Assembly (NCBI GenBank): GCA_964576795.1
Contig: CAZNWT010000005.1
Coordinates: 17,696 to 81,695, forward strand
Length of the DNA stretch: 64,000 bases
DNA from: an uncultured Victivallales bacterium
Lineage (GTDB): Bacteria > Verrucomicrobiota > Kiritimatiellia > UBA8416
Reading direction: 5' to 3'
Shown here: positions 964 to 38,633 of the stretch, one piece after another
How positions within the stretch are numbered: position 1 is the first letter of the stretch
How the letters are laid out: each line of letters opens with the position of its first letter
Program-made: the position numbers and the translations under genes
Notes under the pieces: generated by a model
Databases searched by the model: none
What the model was told of the DNA's origin: nothing
The model's input: only the letters and a program-made list of their open reading frames with translations

Positions 964-995
964 TGGTCGCTTGCCATTCGTTGCGTAGGAGCTTT

Positions 996-1080
996 GTAGG
1001 ACGTGCTTCCCGGTATTCCGGGAGCGCGTGTCTCTCTGGCATCACAGCACGGGCTCCCGGATACGGGAAGCCCGTCCTAC
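996..1080. repeat. Long imperfect inverted repeat with nested hairpins in the atpD–gspE intergenic region
   Basis: Left arm gtaggacgtgcttcccggtattccgggagc (996-1025) is the near reverse complement of right arm gctcccggatacgggaagcccgtcctac (1053-1080). Each arm has an internal cccgg..ccggg palindrome. Confidence 0.6.
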
Positions 1081-1190
1081 AAGCACATGATCATGCTTGT
1101 CTGTACACCAAATCCAAGATGCGCCAGTGCAGAGGTGCCGTCAACTTTGCGCTTTGATCTGAATCGGGGGAGGGGTAGACTTTCTTTGTA

Positions 1191-4046: not shown

Positions 4047-4055
4047 TCTGAGTAA

Positions 4056-4086
4056 ATCGGAAATTGGAAATTGGAAATTGGGAAAC
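4056..4086. repeat. Tandem GAAATTGG repeats
   Basis: cggaaattggaaattggaaattgggaaa. Related degenerate copies occur at 24948-25022 and reverse-complemented at 11228-11262. Confidence 0.6.
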
Positions 4087-4195
4087 AGAACCTGACATTT
4101 CATGCCAGCCAACCCCCTGTCGTCGTACCTCCGTCGGATTATACAGGGTGGAAACTTACGGGTACTAGGCGTCGTGATGAATTGGTGGTTATTTC

Positions 4196-4288
4196 AACGT
4201 CCAACAACCAACGTCCAACGCCCAACTTCCAAGAGAGGGTTCCTCTTCGTTTGGCGTTGGTTGTTGGACGTTGGTTGTTGGGCGTTCG
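4196..4288. repeat. Palindromic CCAACG-rich dispersed element, copy 1
   Basis: caacgtccaacaaccaacgtccaacgcccaac…gttggcgttggttgttggacgttggttgttgggcg forms a long hairpin. A related copy lies at 16316-16388. Confidence 0.65.
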
Positions 4289-5087
4289 ATTTGAGTTTCA
4301 GGTTTGGCGGGGCTGGGGAGTGGCGTGGTTGCTGATTCTGGTTGCCGCATCGACGCTCGCTGGAGCGACTCCCGATGTGTGGGACACCCTCAAAGGCAAG
4401 CACTTTATCGTTTCCCATCAGGGAAATGCAGCCTTTGCGGCAGAGGTTCTGCACCGGGCAGAGTTGTATTACGATTCAATTGTGCAGCAACTCGGGTTTA
4501 AGCGAGTTGATAACTTCTGGCTTTGGGAGCGTCGCGCCCGGATAAAGCTATATGCGAGTCGTCAGGCGTTTATCGAAAGCACGGGGGCTCCTGATTGGGC
4601 GACGGCCAAGGCCAATGTCCGTGACCGCACAATTGAATCCTTTGGTAACAGTAGGGTGTTTCTCGAATCCAGGCTTCCCCATGAGATGGCTCACCTTTTT
4701 TTTCGCGAATACATTGGATTCACGGGTGCGGTTCCGCTCTGGCTGGATGAAGGAGTTGCTCAGTGGTGTGAGTTTGAGCCTGGGCCATCTACGCCGCCCG
4801 CTTTGCGGAAGTGGATTCCGCTACGGGTGATGACGACCATGACTGTAAATGAAATTATGGATGTTGATCGGGCACAACTTTTCTATCGCGAATCCGCTTC
4901 TGTCGTTGAGTATTTGGTTACGACCTATGGCAAAGGTGCATTCACAAAATTTTGTCGACAGTTGCGGGATGGAAAACGTTTGGATAGGGCTTTGCGGTTT
5001 ACTTATCCAAACACCATCTCTACACTGGAGCTATTAGAACAACAATGGTCTGTGTGGCAGATTGCACGCAGTATTCGCAATCGCTGA
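4275..5087 (+). CDS. Secreted gluzincin-like metallopeptidase (Peptidase_MA-like; HEMAH…E), start uncertain
   Basis: HEMAHLF followed by WLDEGVAQ gives the HExxH + E zinc-binding signature, and there is a hydrophobic signal-like segment WLLILVAASTLAGA. The ORF is open from 4071, but the upstream part is repeat sequence. Alternative starts are TTG 4275/4278 or GTG 4320. Confidence 0.5.
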   Translation: MLGVRFEFQVWRGWGVAWLLILVAASTLAGATPDVWDTLKGKHFIVSHQGNAAFAAEVLHRAELYYDSIVQQLGFKRVDNFWLWERRARIKLYASRQAFIESTGAPDWATAKANVRDRTIESFGNSRVFLESRLPHEMAHLFFREYIGFTGAVPLWLDEGVAQWCEFEPGPSTPPALRKWIPLRVMTTMTVNEIMDVDRAQLFYRESASVVEYLVTTYGKGAFTKFCRQLRDGKRLDRALRFTYPNTISTLELLEQQWSVWQIARSIRNR

Positions 5088-11149: not shown

Positions 11150-11226
11150 CGGGGCGAGGGCGCCCCACCCCCATTATTGCAAGAATATGTTTGACTGCAG
11201 AAATGGAGGTGGACCGCCCTCGTTCC
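11150..11226. repeat. ~77-bp dispersed element with inverted termini, copy A
   Basis: ggggcgagggcgcccc…ccattattgcaagaa…aatggaggtggaccgccctcgttccg. It is ~85% identical to the copy at 14842-14917. Confidence 0.7.
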
Positions 11227-11276
11227 GAATATCTGTCCATTATTTCCAATTTTGCATTTTCCAATTTCAAATCTAC

Positions 11277-11304
11277 CCTAAGGGAAACCCTTAGGTCTTT
11301 TTTT
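11277..11304 (+). terminator. Rho-independent terminator
   Basis: The perfect hairpin cctaaggg-aaa-cccttagg is followed by tcttttttt. Confidence 0.7.
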
Positions 11305-14803: not shown

Positions 14804-14841
14804 TGTCGTGGAGGTGGCCCGCTCTTGGGTTGCTTATGTCC

Positions 14842-14917
14842 GGGGCGAGGGCGCCCTAGCTCCATTGTTGCAGGATGAGGGTAGATTGCTGTAATGGAGG
14901 TGGGACGCCCTCGTCCC
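14842..14917. repeat. ~77-bp dispersed element with inverted termini, copy B
   Basis: ggggcgagggcgccctagctccattgttgcagga…taatggaggtgggacgccctcgtcccg. It sits in direct orientation relative to copy A. Confidence 0.7.
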
Positions 14918-14945
14918 GCGAGCGCAGGGAGGGGGGGGAGGGGTT

Positions 14946-15653: not shown

Positions 15654-15900
15654 CTGGGAAGCGATCTCCTTTCAAAATTGATGACGTAGTTCCACTTTGA
15701 TACGAATGCTAGCAAAAATGCGATATGGAGGGACACTCTATTCTGAAATAGGTCTGCATCTCCGAGTTGGGAAACGCCGGTGAGGGATAGTCGGGAGTGC
15801 GCTCCTGTTGTAGTGCGTCATTGCATGACGTATTCCCGACCTTCAGGCGGGCCCAGATACAATCTGGGGCTACACCTCGGAGATGCGTGCCTAAATGGTA

Positions 15901-16812
15901 TTAGAGGCTGGTGTTGATCATTTTGTATGCGATGTGGCAGCACTCGGGAGCCAAGTCGAGGTAGTGGGGCATGAAGGATGCCAGAATGGGCTGGATTTGT
16001 TCCTGTTGCTGTTGGGTGTAGCGTGGGGTTGGAAGTCGTTGGAAGTCGTGCGTGGCTTGCCAACGCCTTAGAATGGCGAGTGCATCACCGGATATGGGTA
16101 ACAGTAGGGTTCTGTTTACTGTGGGTTTGCATGCCTGACAGAGGATGCCCCCATGCGTTGTCGAGAATAGTGTGCTCCCCCCTGTGTTAACGTTTTGTGT
16201 GCAACTTGTACATTGGAGTAGTTGTGGTGGTAGCCCCAGAAGTGTAAGCATCTGAAGTTCGAACCACAAGAGGAGGGCGGGCAGATAGGTGGGAGGTGGG
16301 AGGAGGCAGGTCGATGGAGAGGCTTTCAACGCCCAACATCCAACGCCCAACGCCGAACGTCCAAGTTGGGGATTTTCTTTGCTGGATGTTGGACGTTCAA
16401 AATGAAGTTTCGAATCAGGAGCAATATGGCCAAGGCATGCTGCAAGGAGGCTGTATAGCTCAGGGGCGTGGGCACCATCGGGGGTTGCAACGGCGGCAAG
16501 ATGGCAGAGGTAGCTTATGGCAGCGGTGCGCTGCCAATCGCCGCGGCAGAGGCGCCGGGCATCAAGCGCGGTGCACTCCTTGACAATATGAAGACCGTTG
16601 TGATCACGGCTATAGAATAGGAGTTCGCACCGATAGCCGATGTCATACTGACCGAAAACAGGGCTTTTGGGGCGACAGGCACCCTTGATGGCAGTCGCAA
16701 TTTTGCCATGCTCCGGCGTCAGCCATGTAACCACATGTGAGGTGTTTGAGAAAGGGGCCACCCGTAGTGTTATGGCCTCTGTCTTGATTATTGTGGAAGC
16801 TGGCATAAACAA
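15901..16812 (-). CDS. recO: DNA repair protein RecO with an in-frame insertion
   Basis: RecO N-terminal OB-fold region (ITLRVAPFSNTSHVVTWLTPEHGKIATAIKGA) and a C4 zinc finger CTSC…x19…CQAC. At 303 aa it is ~50 aa longer than usual, and the extra segment coincides with the repeat at 16316-16388. Confidence 0.7.
   Translation of the reverse strand: MFMPASTIIKTEAITLRVAPFSNTSHVVTWLTPEHGKIATAIKGACRPKSPVFGQYDIGYRCELLFYSRDHNGLHIVKECTALDARRLCRGDWQRTAAISYLCHLAAVATPDGAHAPELYSLLAACLGHIAPDSKLHFERPTSSKENPQLGRSALGVGCWALKASPSTCLLPPPTYLPALLLWFELQMLTLLGLPPQLLQCTSCTQNVNTGGSTLFSTTHGGILCQACKPTVNRTLLLPISGDALAILRRWQATHDFQRLPTPRYTQQQQEQIQPILASFMPHYLDLAPECCHIAYKMINTSL
16316..16388. repeat. Palindromic CCAACG-rich dispersed element, copy 2 (inside recO)
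   Basis: caacgcccaacatccaacgcccaacgccgaacgtccaag…ctggatgttggacgttc. It shares ccaacgtccaa / caacgcccaac motifs with 4196-4288. Confidence 0.6.
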
Positions 16813-21674: not shown

Positions 21675-21705
21675 TCATTGCTCAATTTACTGACCTTTTA
21701 GTTCC

Positions 21706-21789
21706 CTGTAGCCTCGTGCGCCAGCGCGTGGACTGAGGACGTCGTGTCATCTGCGGCGGAGATCCTCCTGCTGGCGCAGGAGGCTACAG
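21706..21789. repeat. GTAGCCTCG…CGCCAG element, full hairpin copy
   Basis: Left arm ctgtagcctcgtgcgccagc and right arm gctggcgcaggaggctacag form a 20-bp stem with one mismatch and a ~45-nt loop, located in the secA leader. Confidence 0.65.
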
Positions 21790-21916
21790 AGACGATTCTT
21801 CTGTGCAAAGGTCTTGTAGGCAAATGACGCGTTTTGCATCCCTTTTGATCTGGCTATTGCGCCATGCCTGACGTAGTCTTTCATGCCAATTACACCCTTT
21901 TCTCGGAGACTATTTT

Positions 21917-24934: not shown

Positions 24935-24936
24935 GG

Positions 24937-25022
24937 CGGGGGGGGGGTAAATTGGGAAATTTGAAATTGGAGAATTTGAAATTTGGAAATCTCAAATTGG
25001 CAAACCTGAAACCTGAAAGCTG
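24937..25022. repeat. G10 homopolymer followed by degenerate GAAATTGG-type tandem repeats
   Basis: cggggggggggtaaattgggaaatttgaaattggagaatttgaaatttggaaatctcaaattggcaaacctgaaacctgaaagctgaaatgg. Confidence 0.7.
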
Positions 25023-25024
25023 AA

Positions 25025-26725
25025 ATGGGGAGTGGAATGCTGGGCCTCTTTTCTGTTCCAATGCTGCTTAGGACCTTTGCGGTTCTCCTTTCGAGTTTTC
25101 TGTTGGCATGTGCGTTTCCGCTACCACCGGTGTTGACATCCATGGAGGGGGCATCCGCCGCTTGGCTGGGACTGATTCCGCTGATATTGGTGTCCCGACT
25201 GACGCGCCCGAAGCTGGCCTTCTGGTGGGGATGGGTGTGTGGTTTTCTGTTTTGGCTGGTTTCGGCTGCTTGGGTGCTGGAACTTCGTAATTCCTGGGGA
25301 TGTTTGCCGGTCGTCATTTTGGCGTGGGTTGCCCTAGCTGCCTATTGTGCTCTCTACATGGGGGTCTTTGCCTATTTGCTCGCAAGCGTCTGGCCACTAC
25401 GTTCTGAAGGAAATGAGAGTGCTCGATCGATCGGGTCTCTTCGTCGCGTAGCACTTGTTCTGCTGACGCCCGTAATTTGGGTAGGTTGTGAATATCTCCG
25501 TGCGGTGCTGTTTACAGGGTTTCCGTGGAATGCTCTGGGGGTCAGTCAGTACCGCAATATTGCGATTATTCAGACCTCAGGCTGGGGCGGTGTCTATGCT
25601 GTCTCTGGACTCATTGTCCTCTTGAATGCCGCTATTGCGATGACGGTGTTGCGCATCGCTGTTGAGTTGCGTTGTAGGGAACGTCGACGCCGTCGGGTTC
25701 ACTTTGAACTGATGATAGGGCTGATTGCGGTTGCGATGAGTTGGTCGTGGGGGGTGCGCACTGTGCGGCGTTCGGATCGTATCTCTGCCGAAGATGCGCA
25801 TATTAGGGTTACAGCGATACAGCCTCAGACGCGTCAGATTCAGAAATGGTCTGAGGCGCATTGCGCGTCTATTTATCGCGTGCTTCAGGAGCAGACGGAG
25901 CTTGCGGTAATGGGGCGACCGGATCTTGTGATTTGGCCGGAAACGGCCATTCCTGATTTGCTGAGAACAGCACCAACCGTTCAGGAGATGGTGTCTGCTT
26001 TGGTGATGCCCGGCACGATGTTGTTGGTCGGGGCTATGGATTTTGAGCAATCTGATATGGATACAGTCTATTACAATGCAAGCTTCCTTGTTGACGCAGA
26101 CGAAGGCATTGTGGGGTCTTATCGTAAGCGTCATCTTGTTCCCTTCGGGGAGTACATTCCCTTCGAAAATCAGATTGGGTTGATCAAACGTCTGGCGCCG
26201 TTGGGATTCAGTTGTATGCCGGGAGGGAAGAGTGGCCTAATGGAGCTTCCTGTTGGAAGTGGCTCCCCAAATCAAACTGCGTTGTTCGGTGTTTTGATCT
26301 GTTTTGAGGATGTGTTCCCCTATTTGGCGCGCCGGGATGTCAAGACGGGTGCCCGTTTTCTTGTCAACCAGACAAATGATGCCTGGTTTGAAGACTCTGC
26401 CGCGTCCCGTCAGCACATGGCCAATGCTGTTTTTCGGGCGGTTGAAAATCGTGTGCCACTGGTGCGTTGTGCAAATACTGGTGTTACCTGCTATGTGGAC
26501 AGTTTTGGGAGAATCATGGAGATGCTTGAGGGGGACGAGGGTTGCACCAACCTCAGGGGATTTTCGGTTTCTGAGATGCGTTTGGCTGCGGCGGGGATGC
26601 CGATGACACCCTATACGCGATTTGGCGATTGGCTGTTTGCACGGCCTTGCGCTATGATAACCTTGGTTTTGTTAATGATGGCGTGGTTGAAATCCTCGAG
26701 ATGGAGAGCAAAGCGTCGCGTTTGA
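25025..26725 (+). CDS. lnt: Apolipoprotein N-acyltransferase
   Basis: N-terminal multi-TM region plus a CN-hydrolase domain (LICFEDVFP, CANTGVT). Confidence 0.8.
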   Translation: MGSGMLGLFSVPMLLRTFAVLLSSFLLACAFPLPPVLTSMEGASAAWLGLIPLILVSRLTRPKLAFWWGWVCGFLFWLVSAAWVLELRNSWGCLPVVILAWVALAAYCALYMGVFAYLLASVWPLRSEGNESARSIGSLRRVALVLLTPVIWVGCEYLRAVLFTGFPWNALGVSQYRNIAIIQTSGWGGVYAVSGLIVLLNAAIAMTVLRIAVELRCRERRRRRVHFELMIGLIAVAMSWSWGVRTVRRSDRISAEDAHIRVTAIQPQTRQIQKWSEAHCASIYRVLQEQTELAVMGRPDLVIWPETAIPDLLRTAPTVQEMVSALVMPGTMLLVGAMDFEQSDMDTVYYNASFLVDADEGIVGSYRKRHLVPFGEYIPFENQIGLIKRLAPLGFSCMPGGKSGLMELPVGSGSPNQTALFGVLICFEDVFPYLARRDVKTGARFLVNQTNDAWFEDSAASRQHMANAVFRAVENRVPLVRCANTGVTCYVDSFGRIMEMLEGDEGCTNLRGFSVSEMRLAAAGMPMTPYTRFGDWLFARPCAMITLVLLMMAWLKSSRWRAKRRV

Positions 26726-26766: not shown

Positions 26767-27898
26767 ATGATTGACGATATTAAACAACGTTTAGATAAGT
26801 TGAACGCGCGCATGGCGGAGATGCGAGGTTATCTTTGACATCCCAGCACGTGAGAAACGATTTTCTGAATTAGAAGCCGAGAGTAATGGCGTTGAATTCT
26901 GGAATGATCCAGGACATGCCCGGGAGATCATTGAGAAGACAAATCAGCAGCGTACCATTCTTAAGCCTTTTGGAGATATTGAGTCGGCGCTAGAGGAAGC
27001 TATGGTGATGCTTAATTTGGCGGAGCTCGAAGAGGATGACGCTCAGCGCAACCAGGCGGTTGAATACATTGACGAATCTATTCGAGATGTTGACTCCTCC
27101 TTTGAAAAGCTTGAGATACAATCGCTGCTTAGTGCTGAGATTGATTCAAGCAATGCCTATCTAACACTACATGCGGGGGCTGGAGGAACAGAGTCCTGCG
27201 ACTGGGCAGATATGTTGTTTCGGATGTATGGTCGGTACAGCGAAATGCAGGGCTTTCAGTTTGATCTTCTTGAGTTTCAGCCAGGGGATGAGGCAGGCAT
27301 CAAGCGGGCTACGGTCCAGATTTCGGGAGCTTACGCCTATGGATATCTGAAGGCGGAACGCGGGGTCCATCGTTTGGTTCGAATCAGTCCGTTTGATTCA
27401 AACAAACGTCGGCATACATCCTTTGCAGCCGTTGATGTTGTGGCTGAAATCCCTGATGATATTGAGGTCGAGATTTCCGATTCTGACATTCGGGTTGATA
27501 CGTATCGCGCCAGTGGGGCTGGAGGGCAGCATGTCAATACGACGGACTCCGCAGTACGGATTACGCATCTTTCAACTGGGCTTGTTAGTGCGTGCCAAGC
27601 GGAGCGATCGCAGCACATGAACCGCGCGAAAGCGATGAAGATGTTGCGCGCCAAGGTGTATGAGAGGATCCTTGCCGAAAAGCGCAAGGATATGGAGAAA
27701 TTCTATGGGGCGAAGGGCGAGATTGCCTGGGGTAGTCAGATTCGCTCCTATGTGTTGCAGCCCTATACCATGGTCAAAGATCACCGCTGTGGGGTTGAGA
27801 CCTCAAATGTTCAAAAAGTTCTGGATGGCGACATTCAGATGTTCATCGAGGGCTGGTTGAAGAGTAAAGCCGAGAACAAAAAAGCCGTTTTCGACTAA
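26767..27898 (+). CDS. prfB: Peptide chain release factor 2 with a programmed +1 frameshift at CTT TGA C (26833-26839)
   Basis: Frame 0 reads MIDDIKQRLDKLNARMAEMRGYL then TGA. The +1 frame continues DIPAREKRFSELEAE… through SPFDSNKRRHTSFA and the GGQ motif. An SD-like gaggt lies just upstream of the CTT TGA C shift site. Confidence 0.9.
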
Positions 27899-28156
27899 GG
27901 TTCATTTTTCGGCGCGTTAGGATTGTTTAGGGGTGAGACTTGGGGTGATATGGAGTGCCGTGACGGAGTCACCGCTTTGGATTCGAGCAAAGTGTGACAC
28001 GGATAAGAGTCGTAGACGGAACCGATCACGTTGGATGCATTCACGCGCTCCGCGCTCACGGAAAGCGGCGATTCCATCGCCGCACTCCAAAAAGGGTGCC
28101 CAAATGATGGTGAGGCGCTTGGGTGTGGTTTGAAGTGTTGAAAGAGGAAGACGCTA

Positions 28157-36937: not shown

Positions 36938-37013
36938 GCCCATGTAGCTCAGTCGGCAGAGCACGTCCTTGGTAAGGACGAGGTCAGCGGTTCGATCCCG
37001 CTCATGGGCTCCA
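36938..37013 (+). tRNA. tRNA-Thr (anticodon GGT)
   Basis: The 76-nt cloverleaf folds by hand with acceptor gcccatg/catgggc, anticodon loop ttGGTaa, T-loop ttcgatc and a 3' CCA. Confidence 0.85.
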
Positions 37014-37083: not shown

Positions 37084-38292
37084 ATGGCGAAGGAAAAGTT
37101 CGAAAGAACGAAGCCGCACGTGAACGTCGGAACGATTGGGCACGTGGATCATGGCAAGACGACACTGACAGCGGCGATCACCAAGGTTCAGGCTCTTAAG
37201 GGGCTGAGTGAATTCATCGCCTACGACGAAGTTGCCAAGGCATCTGAATCTCAGGGTCGTCGTGACGCGACAAAGATTCTGACGATTGCAACGTCACATG
37301 TTGAGTACAGCACGGTCGCACGTCATTATGCGCACGTTGACTGTCCGGGACATGCTGACTACGTGAAGAACATGATCACGGGTGCTGCTCAAATGGATGG
37401 TGCGATTGTGGTATGTAGTGCTGCAGATGGTCCGATGCCTCAGACGCGTGAGCACATCTTACTGGCTCGTCAGGTGGGTGTTCCTGCGATCGTCGTTTTC
37501 CTTAATAAGGTTGATTTGGTTGATGACGAAGAGTTGCTTGAGCTGGTTGAGCTTGAGGTCCGTGAGTTGCTTTCCAAGTATGACTTCCCAGGCGACGACA
37601 TTCCGATCATTCGTGGCGATGCTCTTTCGGCAACGCATGCCAACTCGGCTGATGATCCTGCCTGTGAGTGCATCACGAACCTGATGGATGCTCTTGATTC
37701 CTACATTCCAGAGCCCGTTCGTGTGACAGATCAGGCATTCCTGATGCCGATTGAGGATGTGTTCTCGATTGAAGGACGTGGAACCGTGGTTACGGGTCGT
37801 ATCGAGCGTGGAATCATCAAAGTGGGTGAATCCGTCGAAATCGTGGGTATCCATGATACCGCCACGACGACAGCAACGGGCGTGGAAATGTTCCGTAAGT
37901 TGCTTGATCAGGGTGAAGCGGGTGATAATGTTGGTGTTCTGCTTCGTGGAACAAAGAAAGACGACGTGGAGCGTGGTCAAGTTTTGGCCAAGCCCGGTTC
38001 GATTACACCGCATACGGAGTTTGATTGCGAAGTCTACATTCTCAGCAAAGATGAGGGTGGCCGTCACACACCATTTTTCAAGGGCTACCGTCCTCAGTTC
38101 TACATTCGCACAACGGATGTAACGGGCGACATCACGCTTCCTGAAGGTGTTGAGATGGTGATGCCGGGTGACAGTGTCAGCATGTTTGTCAAATTGATCC
38201 AGCCCGTTGCGTTGGAAGACAAGATGCGTTTTGCTATCCGCGAAGGTGGCCGCACGGTGGGTGCTGGCACGGTAACGAAGATTCTTAAGTAG
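37084..38292 (+). CDS. tuf: Elongation factor Tu
   Basis: [18 protein letters not shown] and NKVD motifs with full-length identity to EF-Tu. The switch I region is unusual, reading [17 protein letters not shown]. Confidence 0.95.
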
Positions 38293-38556: not shown

Positions 38557-38633
38557 AGGCCAGTAGCTCAATTTGGCAGAGCACCGGTCTCCAAAACCGG
38601 GGGTTGGGGGTTCGATTCCCTCCTGGCCTGCCA
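38557..38633 (+). tRNA. tRNA-Trp (anticodon CCA)
   Basis: The 77-nt cloverleaf has acceptor aggccag/ctggcct, anticodon loop ctCCAaa, T-loop ttcgatt and a 3' CCA. Confidence 0.8.

Follow-up and report, generated by a model that had tools for sequence, protein, structure and literature searches.

An in-frame heptamer-repeat hairpin inside the recO gene of a PVC bacterium

The recO open reading frame of the 64-kb stretch of DNA analyzed here (hereafter, the window) occupies positions 15901–16812 on the minus strand and is open along all of its 303 codons, including a palindromic element that lies well inside the gene. The locus raises two questions: where does such an element come from, and how can a gene for DNA repair carry it in a conserved domain and still be read to its end?

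We first consider what is extra in this gene. The protein, from a PVC bacterium, is 100% identical to P0001, and its closest named relatives are Kiritimatiellae. Among 5.8 billion proteins, a search retrieved 106 RecO homologues, most of those listed being approximately 260–280 aa long and without the insert. We measured the insert against its closest insert-free orthologue, P0003 (262 aa); it takes up columns 409–525 of the DNA alignment and faces the matching gap in the protein alignment (Table 1). A preliminary description of this locus had predicted an extra segment of roughly 50 aa between the helical domain and the zinc finger. The segment is real, since it is absent from P0003 and from most of the listed orthologues, and it does fall between the RecO helical domain and the helix preceding the zinc finger, but it measures 39 aa. 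Its 117 nt contain no stop, so that the frame is open through the repeat, as had been stated. Nor is the extra sequence something that relatives share without a repeat in their DNA, an outcome that the preliminary description had named as fatal to its reading; P0003 and most of the listed orthologues have no such segment. Length does vary at the same site in some orthologues: P0002 (297 aa) carries 35 extra residues with another peptide sequence, P0008 carries 12 and P0010 approximately 24. When the additional stretch of P0008 was examined for a repeat or a hairpin, none was found.

Table 1. Positions of the recO gene, its insert and the heptamer hairpins in the window
Feature	Position	Strand	Description
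recO CDS	15901..16806	(-)	301 aa from the likely ATG at 16806; alternative TTG at 16812 gives 303 aa
Extra segment of recO	16288..16404	(-)	39 codons (117 nt), residues 137-175 in the 303-aa ORF: HFERPTSSKENPQLGRSALGVGCWALKASPSTCLLPPPT; absent in P0003
C-rich tail of the insert	16288..16323	(-)	~36 nt, encodes ASPSTCLLPPPT; outside the hairpin
Copy B of the heptamer hairpin	16324..16401	.	long arm, loop and short arm, TTTCAACG to CGTTCAAA; ~78 of the 117 nt of the insert
Copy B, long arm	16326..16365	(+)	six units, TCAACGC CCAACAT CCAACGC CCAACGC CGAACGT CCAAG
Copy B, short arm	16382..16399	(+)	2-3 units, CTGGATG TTGGACG TTCA, complementary to the long arm
Copy A of the heptamer hairpin	4192..4291	.	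fuller, near-perfect; six units per arm (4194-4233, 4249-4289), 15-nt loop AGAGGGTTCCTCTTC
RecO C4 zinc-finger codons (C201, C204, C225, C228)	16129..16212	(-)	intact, downstream of the insert; invariant alignment columns
10-bp tandem repeat, tggaagtcgt x2	16030-16049 (~16028..16051 with partial flanks)	(-)	HDFQRLPT codons; conserved coding sequence

A further repeat in the gene, the 10-bp tandem repeat of Table 1, had been described as a duplication. The repeat exists, but it is kept with one mismatch in both P0002 and P0003, and because of this conservation, and because the orthologues show no gap there, it is not the product of a recent duplication or indel.

Around the insert, the protein has the features expected of a RecO. 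Pfam recognizes RecO_N at aa 9–84 (E = 7.6e-13) and RecO_C (E = 2.7e-17), the latter split in two stretches, and the four zinc-finger cysteines are invariant in an alignment of the 17 closest homologues. An AlphaFold2 model calculated with 96 homologues has a mean pLDDT of 89.7 and matches the RecO structures 3q8d, 1u5k and 1w3s with a target-normalized TM score of approximately 0.8 (0.81 for 3q8d and 1u5k); the OB-fold, the helical domain and the C4 zinc finger are all present. As judged by the model, the RecO fold is retained despite the insert. The insert itself is modeled as coil without secondary structure, with pLDDT values of 51–65 (ten-residue blocks, residues 131–170 in the 301-aa numbering), and is flanked by helices 115–135 and 172–189. 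Searching PDB sequences with the single sequence of the window RecO gave no match; a profile search of the same sequences places the insert site in the loop before the E. coli RecO helix ALRRFELALLGHLG. The insert site is thus predicted to be a permissive surface loop.

Does the element reach the mature protein at all? It could be excised in an intron-like manner or skipped by translational hopping, or recO could be a recent pseudogene or an artefact of assembly. Some translational bypass sites have a stable hairpin within the coding region, as recO does here, and the openness of the repeat in six frames could keep a dead gene looking open. We nevertheless regard this group of explanations as extremely improbable. 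Exactly 39 codons without a stop would be needless if the segment were skipped. The whole recO DNA, with the insert, recurs without a single difference on four contigs of other assemblies (L003–L006), and such identity in five independent contigs argues against an assembly artefact. At gathering threshold, Rfam matches in the whole window are limited to two tRNAs, with no intron and no family for the element. The flanks, finally, behave as those of a working gene: over 253 flanking codons, dN/dS (Nei–Gojobori) is 0.137 between the window and P0002, 0.174 between the window and P0003, and 0.258 between P0002 and P0003, where the corresponding nucleotide identities are 84%, approximately 83% and 94%. 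Judged by these substitution ratios, the recO flanks are under purifying selection, with a dN/dS of 0.14 on either side of the insert when the two lineages that carry it are compared, which speaks against a pseudogene. On these grounds we rejected the possibilities that the element is an intein or intron, that the gene is a pseudogene and that it is an artefact of assembly. Because the frame is preserved and the gene is under purifying selection, we infer that the insert is translated, being read through as a probably disordered 39-residue loop (ERPTS...LGVGCWAL).

Most of the insert is a hairpin with arms built of 7-nt units (copy B), the two arms of which are separated by a 16-nt loop, and a second such hairpin (copy A) is present elsewhere in the window (Table 1). 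The preliminary description had recognized a palindromic element at 16316–16388 with a second copy at 4196–4288. The element is real, with its ends at 16324 and 16401, and the position given for the second copy was close (4192–4291). Two other statements have to be revised: the extra segment and the element do not coincide exactly, the hairpin covering approximately 78 of the 117 nt and a C-rich tail approximately 36 nt; and the element, rather than having a constant length of 73 bp, is a hairpin with a variable number of 7-nt units. The approximately 36 of 117 nt that are not hairpin sequence count against an explanation of the insert by hairpin insertion.

The repetitive nature of the two copies stands out clearly from the background of the window. 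With at most one mismatch, CCAACGYCCAAC matches the 64 kb 11 times, against 1.13 matches expected and with none of 100 shuffles reaching 11, and 10 of these 11 near-matches lie at 4194–4288 or 16326–16358. A repeat finder pairs 4250–4286 with 16328–16364 in inverted orientation (37 nt, 81% complementary). Period-7 tracts number four in the window and zero in 20 shuffles at a looser threshold, strict scans missing the CCAACGN arrays; both copies contain at least three tandem 7-nt units, above chance. The sense-strand RNA of copy B is predicted to fold with −40.8 kcal/mol (z = −3.66) and a 17-bp stem, and copy A, as DNA, with −37.2 kcal/mol (z = −8.2). Copy B is unlike an intrinsic terminator, because a terminator and promoter scan revealed no T-tract after the stem on the recO sense strand. 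Copy A comes after the stop codon of gspF (4046) and ahead of what is likely the start of a peptidase-MA gene, the Pfam peptidase domain of which sits well downstream; the terminator and promoter scan gave nothing informative there, and its matches in Rfam are sub-threshold, to miRNA precursors only, and reflect generic hairpin similarity. Copies A and B are the only CCAACGN copies in approximately 82 kb of the source genome (the contig of the window with an extension of approximately 18 kb), where other heptamer arrays are of the GGAAATT type and related types. Presence and copy number of heptamers vary among related genomes: the recO insert differs between the window, P0002 and P0003, and the secA–lnt spacer of the relative L002 has no heptamer array.

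Why the reading frame survives is explained by the unit itself. Over all frames, CCAACGN yields the codons CCA, ACG, NCC, AAC, GNC, CAA and CGN, and its complement NCGTTGG yields NCG, TTG, GNC, GTT, GGN, CGT and TGG; no stop is possible on either strand. Since 7 and 3 have no common factor, an array gives one and the same cyclic heptapeptide in each of its three frames, and arrays of CCAACGT, CCAACGC, CCAACAT or CCAACAA are accordingly open in six frames with a single cyclic heptapeptide per strand, of the PTSNVQR type on one strand and of the LDVGRWT type on the other. It follows that a palindrome made of such arrays reads, whichever way round it lies, as (QRPTSNV)n-loop-(LDVGRWT)n, a pattern that the recO insert (ERPTSS...LGVGCWAL) matches. 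With no stop in any frame, any copy with a length divisible by three stays open, and 117 nt qualifies.

The relatives P0002 and P0003 provide some indication of the history of the insert. The P0002 insert has lost nearly all of the hairpin, and has in common with the C-rich tail of the window insert CCCACCTCCC as well as G(G/C)CTCTCCA..TCGA. A global alignment of the two inserts gives p of approximately 0.01 under stricter scoring, and the score of a gap-tolerant global alignment was equaled by 6 of 2,000 dinucleotide shuffles; at these values, homology of the two inserts is probable rather than certain. They would then be related by common descent from one old insertion, and the insert would probably have become heavily decayed in P0002 and be absent or lost in P0003. 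Alternatively, the two may represent independent hits at one hot spot. Comparison of the P0002 insert with the window and approximately 240 loci (blastn-short) gave no significant match and assigned it to no repeat family. Next to this insert, CATCTCCCC on one side and CACCTCCCC on the other may represent a 9-bp direct repeat in sequences that are divergent; at the recO site in the window, no target-site duplication is visible.

The preliminary description had also made its reading depend on the element being found elsewhere. Besides the second copy in the window, there are very many in other genomes. A scan for four CCAACNN units, with each species represented by one genome, gave at least 120 loci; many of these are direct arrays in which positions six and seven of the unit hold other bases, and the set is not limited to hairpins. 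According to record titles, the matches listed come from Acidobacteriota, Verrucomicrobiota, Planctomycetota, Cyanobacteria and Bacteroidota, and include a Kiritimatiellae MAG and a Lentisphaerae MAG. A scan of metagenome contigs for hairpins (CCAACGYCCAAC, then 15–45 nt, then GTTGGRCGTT) returned at least 119 loci; among the matches listed, 91 hairpins have arms of 1–10 units, loops of 0–43 nt and total lengths of 44–117 nt. As judged by crude gene calls, intergenic copies among the matches listed usually lie 2–40 nt past a stop codon. In flank logos calculated for the 91 elements (179 ends), a degenerate outer unit (..AAACGY) is all that stands out; conserved termini or tags are absent. Full-text searching of the literature yielded no description of the DNA motif, of the encoded peptides or of heptamer repeats from these phyla. 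The CCAACGN hairpin family is apparently widespread, in several bacterial phyla, and undescribed.

We then analyzed whether copy B could have arisen where it stands. Chance CCAACGN units in the RecO linker could have expanded by slippage, and a template switch (snap-back) could have produced the inverted arm, with no pre-formed element involved. Heptameric repeats are over-represented and length-variable in bacteria, for which slippage of the polymerase has been held responsible (PMC4692102, PMC4679880). In the CCAACGN family, the wide spread of unit numbers (1–10 per arm) and the very diverse loops among the matches listed fit slippage-driven local dynamics and weaken the picture of a discrete mobile unit. 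Growth in place is further consistent with the lack of conserved termini in the listed elements, of a target duplication at the recO site and of a transposase in the approximately 82 kb of source genome, and with the RecO loop of P0008, which varies in length without any repeat. In comparison with MITEs, the arms of the element are themselves inverted repeats.

Four observations argue against growth in place. First, an nhmmer profile made from five foreign elements (L131, L155, L059, L136 and L188), with both window copies left out, finds exactly two sites in the 64 kb, at 4168–4293 (E = 1.3e-32) and 16316–16397 (E = 3.2e-18), and its match to copy B reaches past the arms, into the left flank and the loop. 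Second, copy A resembles an element with unrelated neighboring genes, that of metagenome contig L131, at 88% identity over 118 nt; this match takes in the loop together with a 14-nt left flank that is not made of heptamers (GTGATGAATTGGTG); the loops of copy A, copy B and L131 are similar. Third, the contigs with two copies (L141 and L181) have near-identical loops, which suggests copying rather than independent birth. Finally, the empty site of P0003 in the DNA alignment contains no heptamer seed from which an array could have grown. Growth in place is, in our assessment, rather unlikely. From the flank and loop common to copy A and L131, the near-identical loops on L141 and L181, and the seedless site of P0003, we infer that copy B arrived as a pre-formed copy, presumably via some route of transposition or recombination.

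RecO is not the only protein that carries such a segment. Among the matches listed, 15 of 89 hairpins are situated in open reading frames that extend for 80 codons or more to each side. The hairpin lies inside the Dxr genes of three related loci (L160, L197 and L240), where DXP_redisom_C covers 109 residues for an 84-position profile, between UPF0004 and Radical_SAM in MiaB/RimO-like genes (L171 and L208), and within the PHP domain of a DnaE2-like polymerase (L221). In named genomes, CCAACNN arrays are found inside PriA (Chroococcidiopsis), inside the HATPase_c domain of a histidine kinase, and inside GDE_C, NFACT_N and molybdopterin oxidoreductase (Verrucomicrobia). Pfam domains are recognized on both sides of the repeat in every one of these cases, that is, for the Dxr, MiaB/RimO-like and DnaE2-like hairpins and for the PriA, histidine kinase, GDE_C, NFACT and molybdopterin oxidoreductase arrays; in two PabB-like genes, the array is located directly ahead of the chorismate-binding domain. 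For Dxr, the best 120 homologues are all 408–431 aa long, one of them being named Candidatus Udaeobacter, and the segment has 36 residues in 97 of the 117 homologues that could be anchored, with the sequence KRSTLNAQRPTSNAESSALGVGRWTLDV and variants thereof. Judged by these homologues, a Verrucomicrobia clade carries the Dxr insert as a fixed feature.

Conservation of the Dxr insert in length, and largely in sequence, across such a wide clade might hint at a selected function, and the recO insert could likewise be maintained either as a hairpin in the mRNA that modulates the translation or stability of recO, for which the 17-bp stem predicted for the sense RNA would be suitable, or as a peptide loop with a new interaction. 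For recO we consider this very unlikely: the insert is not conserved, being absent from P0003 and represented in P0002 by a different peptide from which the hairpin is almost gone; it is predicted to be disordered; and unrelated proteins, as well as stretches between genes, contain the element too.

Taken together, we find it quite probable that a pre-formed copy of a non-coding CCAACGN hairpin was incorporated into the loop region of recO with the frame kept, and that it has remained there as a tolerated neutral passenger, drifting and decaying. The copy would have entered the part of recO that encodes the surface loop of the central helical domain, between helices of this domain and directly ahead of the helix in front of the zinc finger. 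With a length divisible by three and stop-free units, the insertion would have left recO open and the element would be read as an extra loop. RecO keeps its fold, as judged by the model, and remains under purifying selection, and the insert, presumably neutral or essentially so, would drift and decay; its short arm, now of 2–3 units against six in the intergenic copy A, would be a product of such decay. The related species P0002 would hold an apparently further decayed version, and P0003, another relative, none.

A broader proposal, which we put at somewhat less than an even chance, is that the CCAACGN-type hairpins form one coherent class of DNA, selfish or structural, that has gone undescribed and that spans the PVC superphylum and probably extends to Acidobacteriota and further phyla. 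Coding-neutral by construction, such hairpins could thus colonize and persist in essential genes (recO, dxr, miaB/rimO and dnaE2), where they would supply disordered loops and change in length in in-frame steps.

In-frame protein-coding palindromes have so far been treated as a near-peculiarity of Rickettsia, and heptameric repeats have gone unexplained for decades. The recO case joins both themes: a free-living PVC bacterium has a heptamer hairpin in a functional gene for DNA repair, and further essential genes of abundant soil bacteria hold members of the same hairpin family. A simple sequence rule, namely that the repeat is stop-free in six frames and gives the same peptide in every frame, accounts for the tolerance. 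If the proposed origin is true, the RecO, Dxr, MiaB/RimO-like and DnaE2-like enzymes are natural insertion experiments, the family offers a handle on how such repeats spread, and gene callers and alignment tools, which now treat the elements as protein, should be used with this warning in mind.

To place the hairpin among known systems, we compared it with four kinds of repeat. The preliminary description had likened it to Rickettsia palindromic elements (RPEs), palindromic repeats that enter genes in frame at sites compatible with the fold (Ogata et al. 2000, 2002, as summarized in PMC10969869). RPEs and the heptamer hairpin are alike in being short dispersed palindromes that occur in frame in unrelated housekeeping genes without a transposase of their own, and in adding peptide segments at fold-compatible positions (PMC10969869). 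The recO hairpin is stable, as judged by the z scores of −3.66 (copy B, RNA) and −8.2 (copy A, DNA), and its 117-nt insert lies in frame in a low-pLDDT loop, with sister cases in Dxr, MiaB-like and DnaE2-like proteins. RPEs have a defined sequence of approximately 100–150 bp and a conserved peptide, and occur in Rickettsia only, with analogues in Wolbachia (PMC10969869). The heptamer hairpin, in contrast, has a variable number of 7-nt units (arms of 1–10 units, 44–117 nt in total) and no fixed length or termini, owes its six-frame openness to the unit sequence, and is found in free-living PVC bacteria as well as in Acidobacteriota and other phyla, according to the record titles of the CCAACNN matches listed. 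Because host, architecture and variable length differ, it works like an RPE but is not one; set against the RPE descriptions, the likeness holds for the way of working and not for family membership.

In architecture, the hairpin is closer to the heptameric SSRs, such as the cyanobacterial STRR, GGGAATC of Xanthomonas and TAACTGA of Beggiatoaceae, which also consist of tandem 7-nt units, are mostly intergenic and vary in copy number (PMC4692102, PMC4679880). These repeats are scattered over phyla, pairs of inverted arrays and a few arrays within ORFs have been noted, and translation gives a 7-residue repeat (PMC4692102, PMC4679880). The published examples are mainly direct arrays, TAACTGA contains stops in the forward direction, and intragenic copies are located at protein ends or in hypothetical proteins (PMC4692102, PMC4679880), whereas the CCAACGN arrays form hairpins, have no stop in either orientation and are located within conserved domains of genes that are essential.

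REP/REPIN sequences and the CGTC- and GTAG-tagged palindromes resemble the heptamer hairpin in being small and extragenic, usually just downstream of genes, and sometimes intragenic, and some REP families have no dedicated transposase (PMC3733652, PMC3116915). REPs are single stem-loops of 20–40 bp with a conserved unpaired tetranucleotide tag, and the GTAG families are associated with RAYT genes (PMC3733652, PMC3116915). The arms of the heptamer hairpin differ in being internally repetitive, the flank logos of the 179 listed ends contain neither a GTAG nor a CGTC tag, and no RAYT gene was found among the Pfam-annotated genes of L003, L247 and L248 (approximately 82 kb of the source genome). 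In the tandem repeats of Borgs, repeat DNA within ORFs likewise adds disordered segments with the frame kept, but those repeats are direct and non-palindromic, have in-ORF units that are a multiple of three, and belong to archaeal extrachromosomal elements only (PMC9879509). Compared with these systems, the recO hairpin combines RPE-like behavior with a heptameric-repeat architecture, and it belongs to a family that is far larger than the preliminary description assumed.

Besides the CCAACGN hairpin, period-7 arrays of other units occur in the window and in L248, an added stretch of the same organism's genome. All six lie in intergenic spacers; one is composed of GTGGASN units and the others of GGAAATT/GAAATYY units, and the GGAAATT unit is likewise stop-free in all six frames. 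Period-7 tracts number four in the window versus none in 20 shuffles. The secA-lnt spacer (window 24935-25024; ~90 nt) consists almost entirely of heptamer repeats, whereas in L002 1730-2030, from the relative that encodes the insert-free RecO orthologue P0003, secA is followed almost directly by the lnt reading frame and the array is absent, so the heptamer arrays are lineage-specific. In spacers of other genomes, CCAACNN arrays often adjoin arrays of a different heptamer (CGAACAT, CCACTAA/CCACTAG or CGAACAC); the adjoining types suggest that entire spacers are built of drifting 7-nt units.

Copy A, the CCAACGN hairpin at 4192-4291, requires a comment on gene boundaries. In the public assembly, the gene caller starts the peptidase-MA gene (window 4071-5087) at TTG 4071, by which copy A reads as the N-terminus of the protein. 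Because the peptidase-MA Pfam domain and a signal-peptide-like stretch both begin downstream of copy A, the gene more probably starts near 4320, which would leave copy A, in all likelihood, in the spacer between the two genes.

Other palindromes are present in the window. Two 78-nt copies (CGGGGCGAGGGCGCC...GGCGCCCTCGTCCCG), 79% identical and very stable as RNA (-46.5 and -51.8 kcal/mol), look like a second palindromic repeat family, unrelated to the heptamer hairpin. Three more long and very stable hairpins (-54 to -65 kcal/mol) are mutually dissimilar. The window genome seems rich in large extragenic palindromes. The spacer 3' of the recO stop measures 247 nt, and a long, imperfect hairpin that encloses further stem-loops is predicted there (window 15725-15915, minus strand; -63 kcal/mol, z -3.3); its outer arms are 15736-15769 and 15873-15906, the latter overlapping the recO stop codon.

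Elsewhere in the window, prfB (release factor 2; 26767-27898) carries a classic programmed +1 frameshift with the site CTTTGAC at 26833: the short frame, MIDDIKQRLDKLNARMAEMRGYL, stops at the TGA in CTT TGA C, and the protein resumes in the +1 frame. Two ordinary tRNA genes (36938-37010 and 38557-38630) lie on either side of an ORF at 37084-38292.

Repeat arrays, palindromes and insert-bearing genes
Feature	Sequence	Coordinates	Remarks
Period-7 arrays besides CCAACGN	window	4047-4091; 11243-11277; 24935-25036	intergenic spacers
Period-7 arrays besides CCAACGN	L248	17820-17854; 18920-18955; 19569-19606	intergenic spacers
Mixed-heptamer spacers	L131; L095; L060	1100-1150; 7660-7790; 2130-2260	
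78-nt palindrome, two copies	window	11150-11227; 14841-14918	intergenic
Long hairpins	window	983-1083; 21703-21792; 27950-28090	intergenic
Dxr genes with hairpin-derived insert	L160; L197; L240	1197-2465; 1114-2367; 1388-2659	homologous proteins P0107-P0226

Finally, Dxr proteins of a Verrucomicrobia clade, in which one homologue is named Candidatus Udaeobacter, contain a hairpin-derived insert within the DXP_redisom_C domain. Of the 120 closest homologues, nearly all contain the insert; 117 could be anchored, and in 97 of these the segment has the same length. The Dxr insert is an old, vertically inherited case of the same phenomenon as the recO insert.
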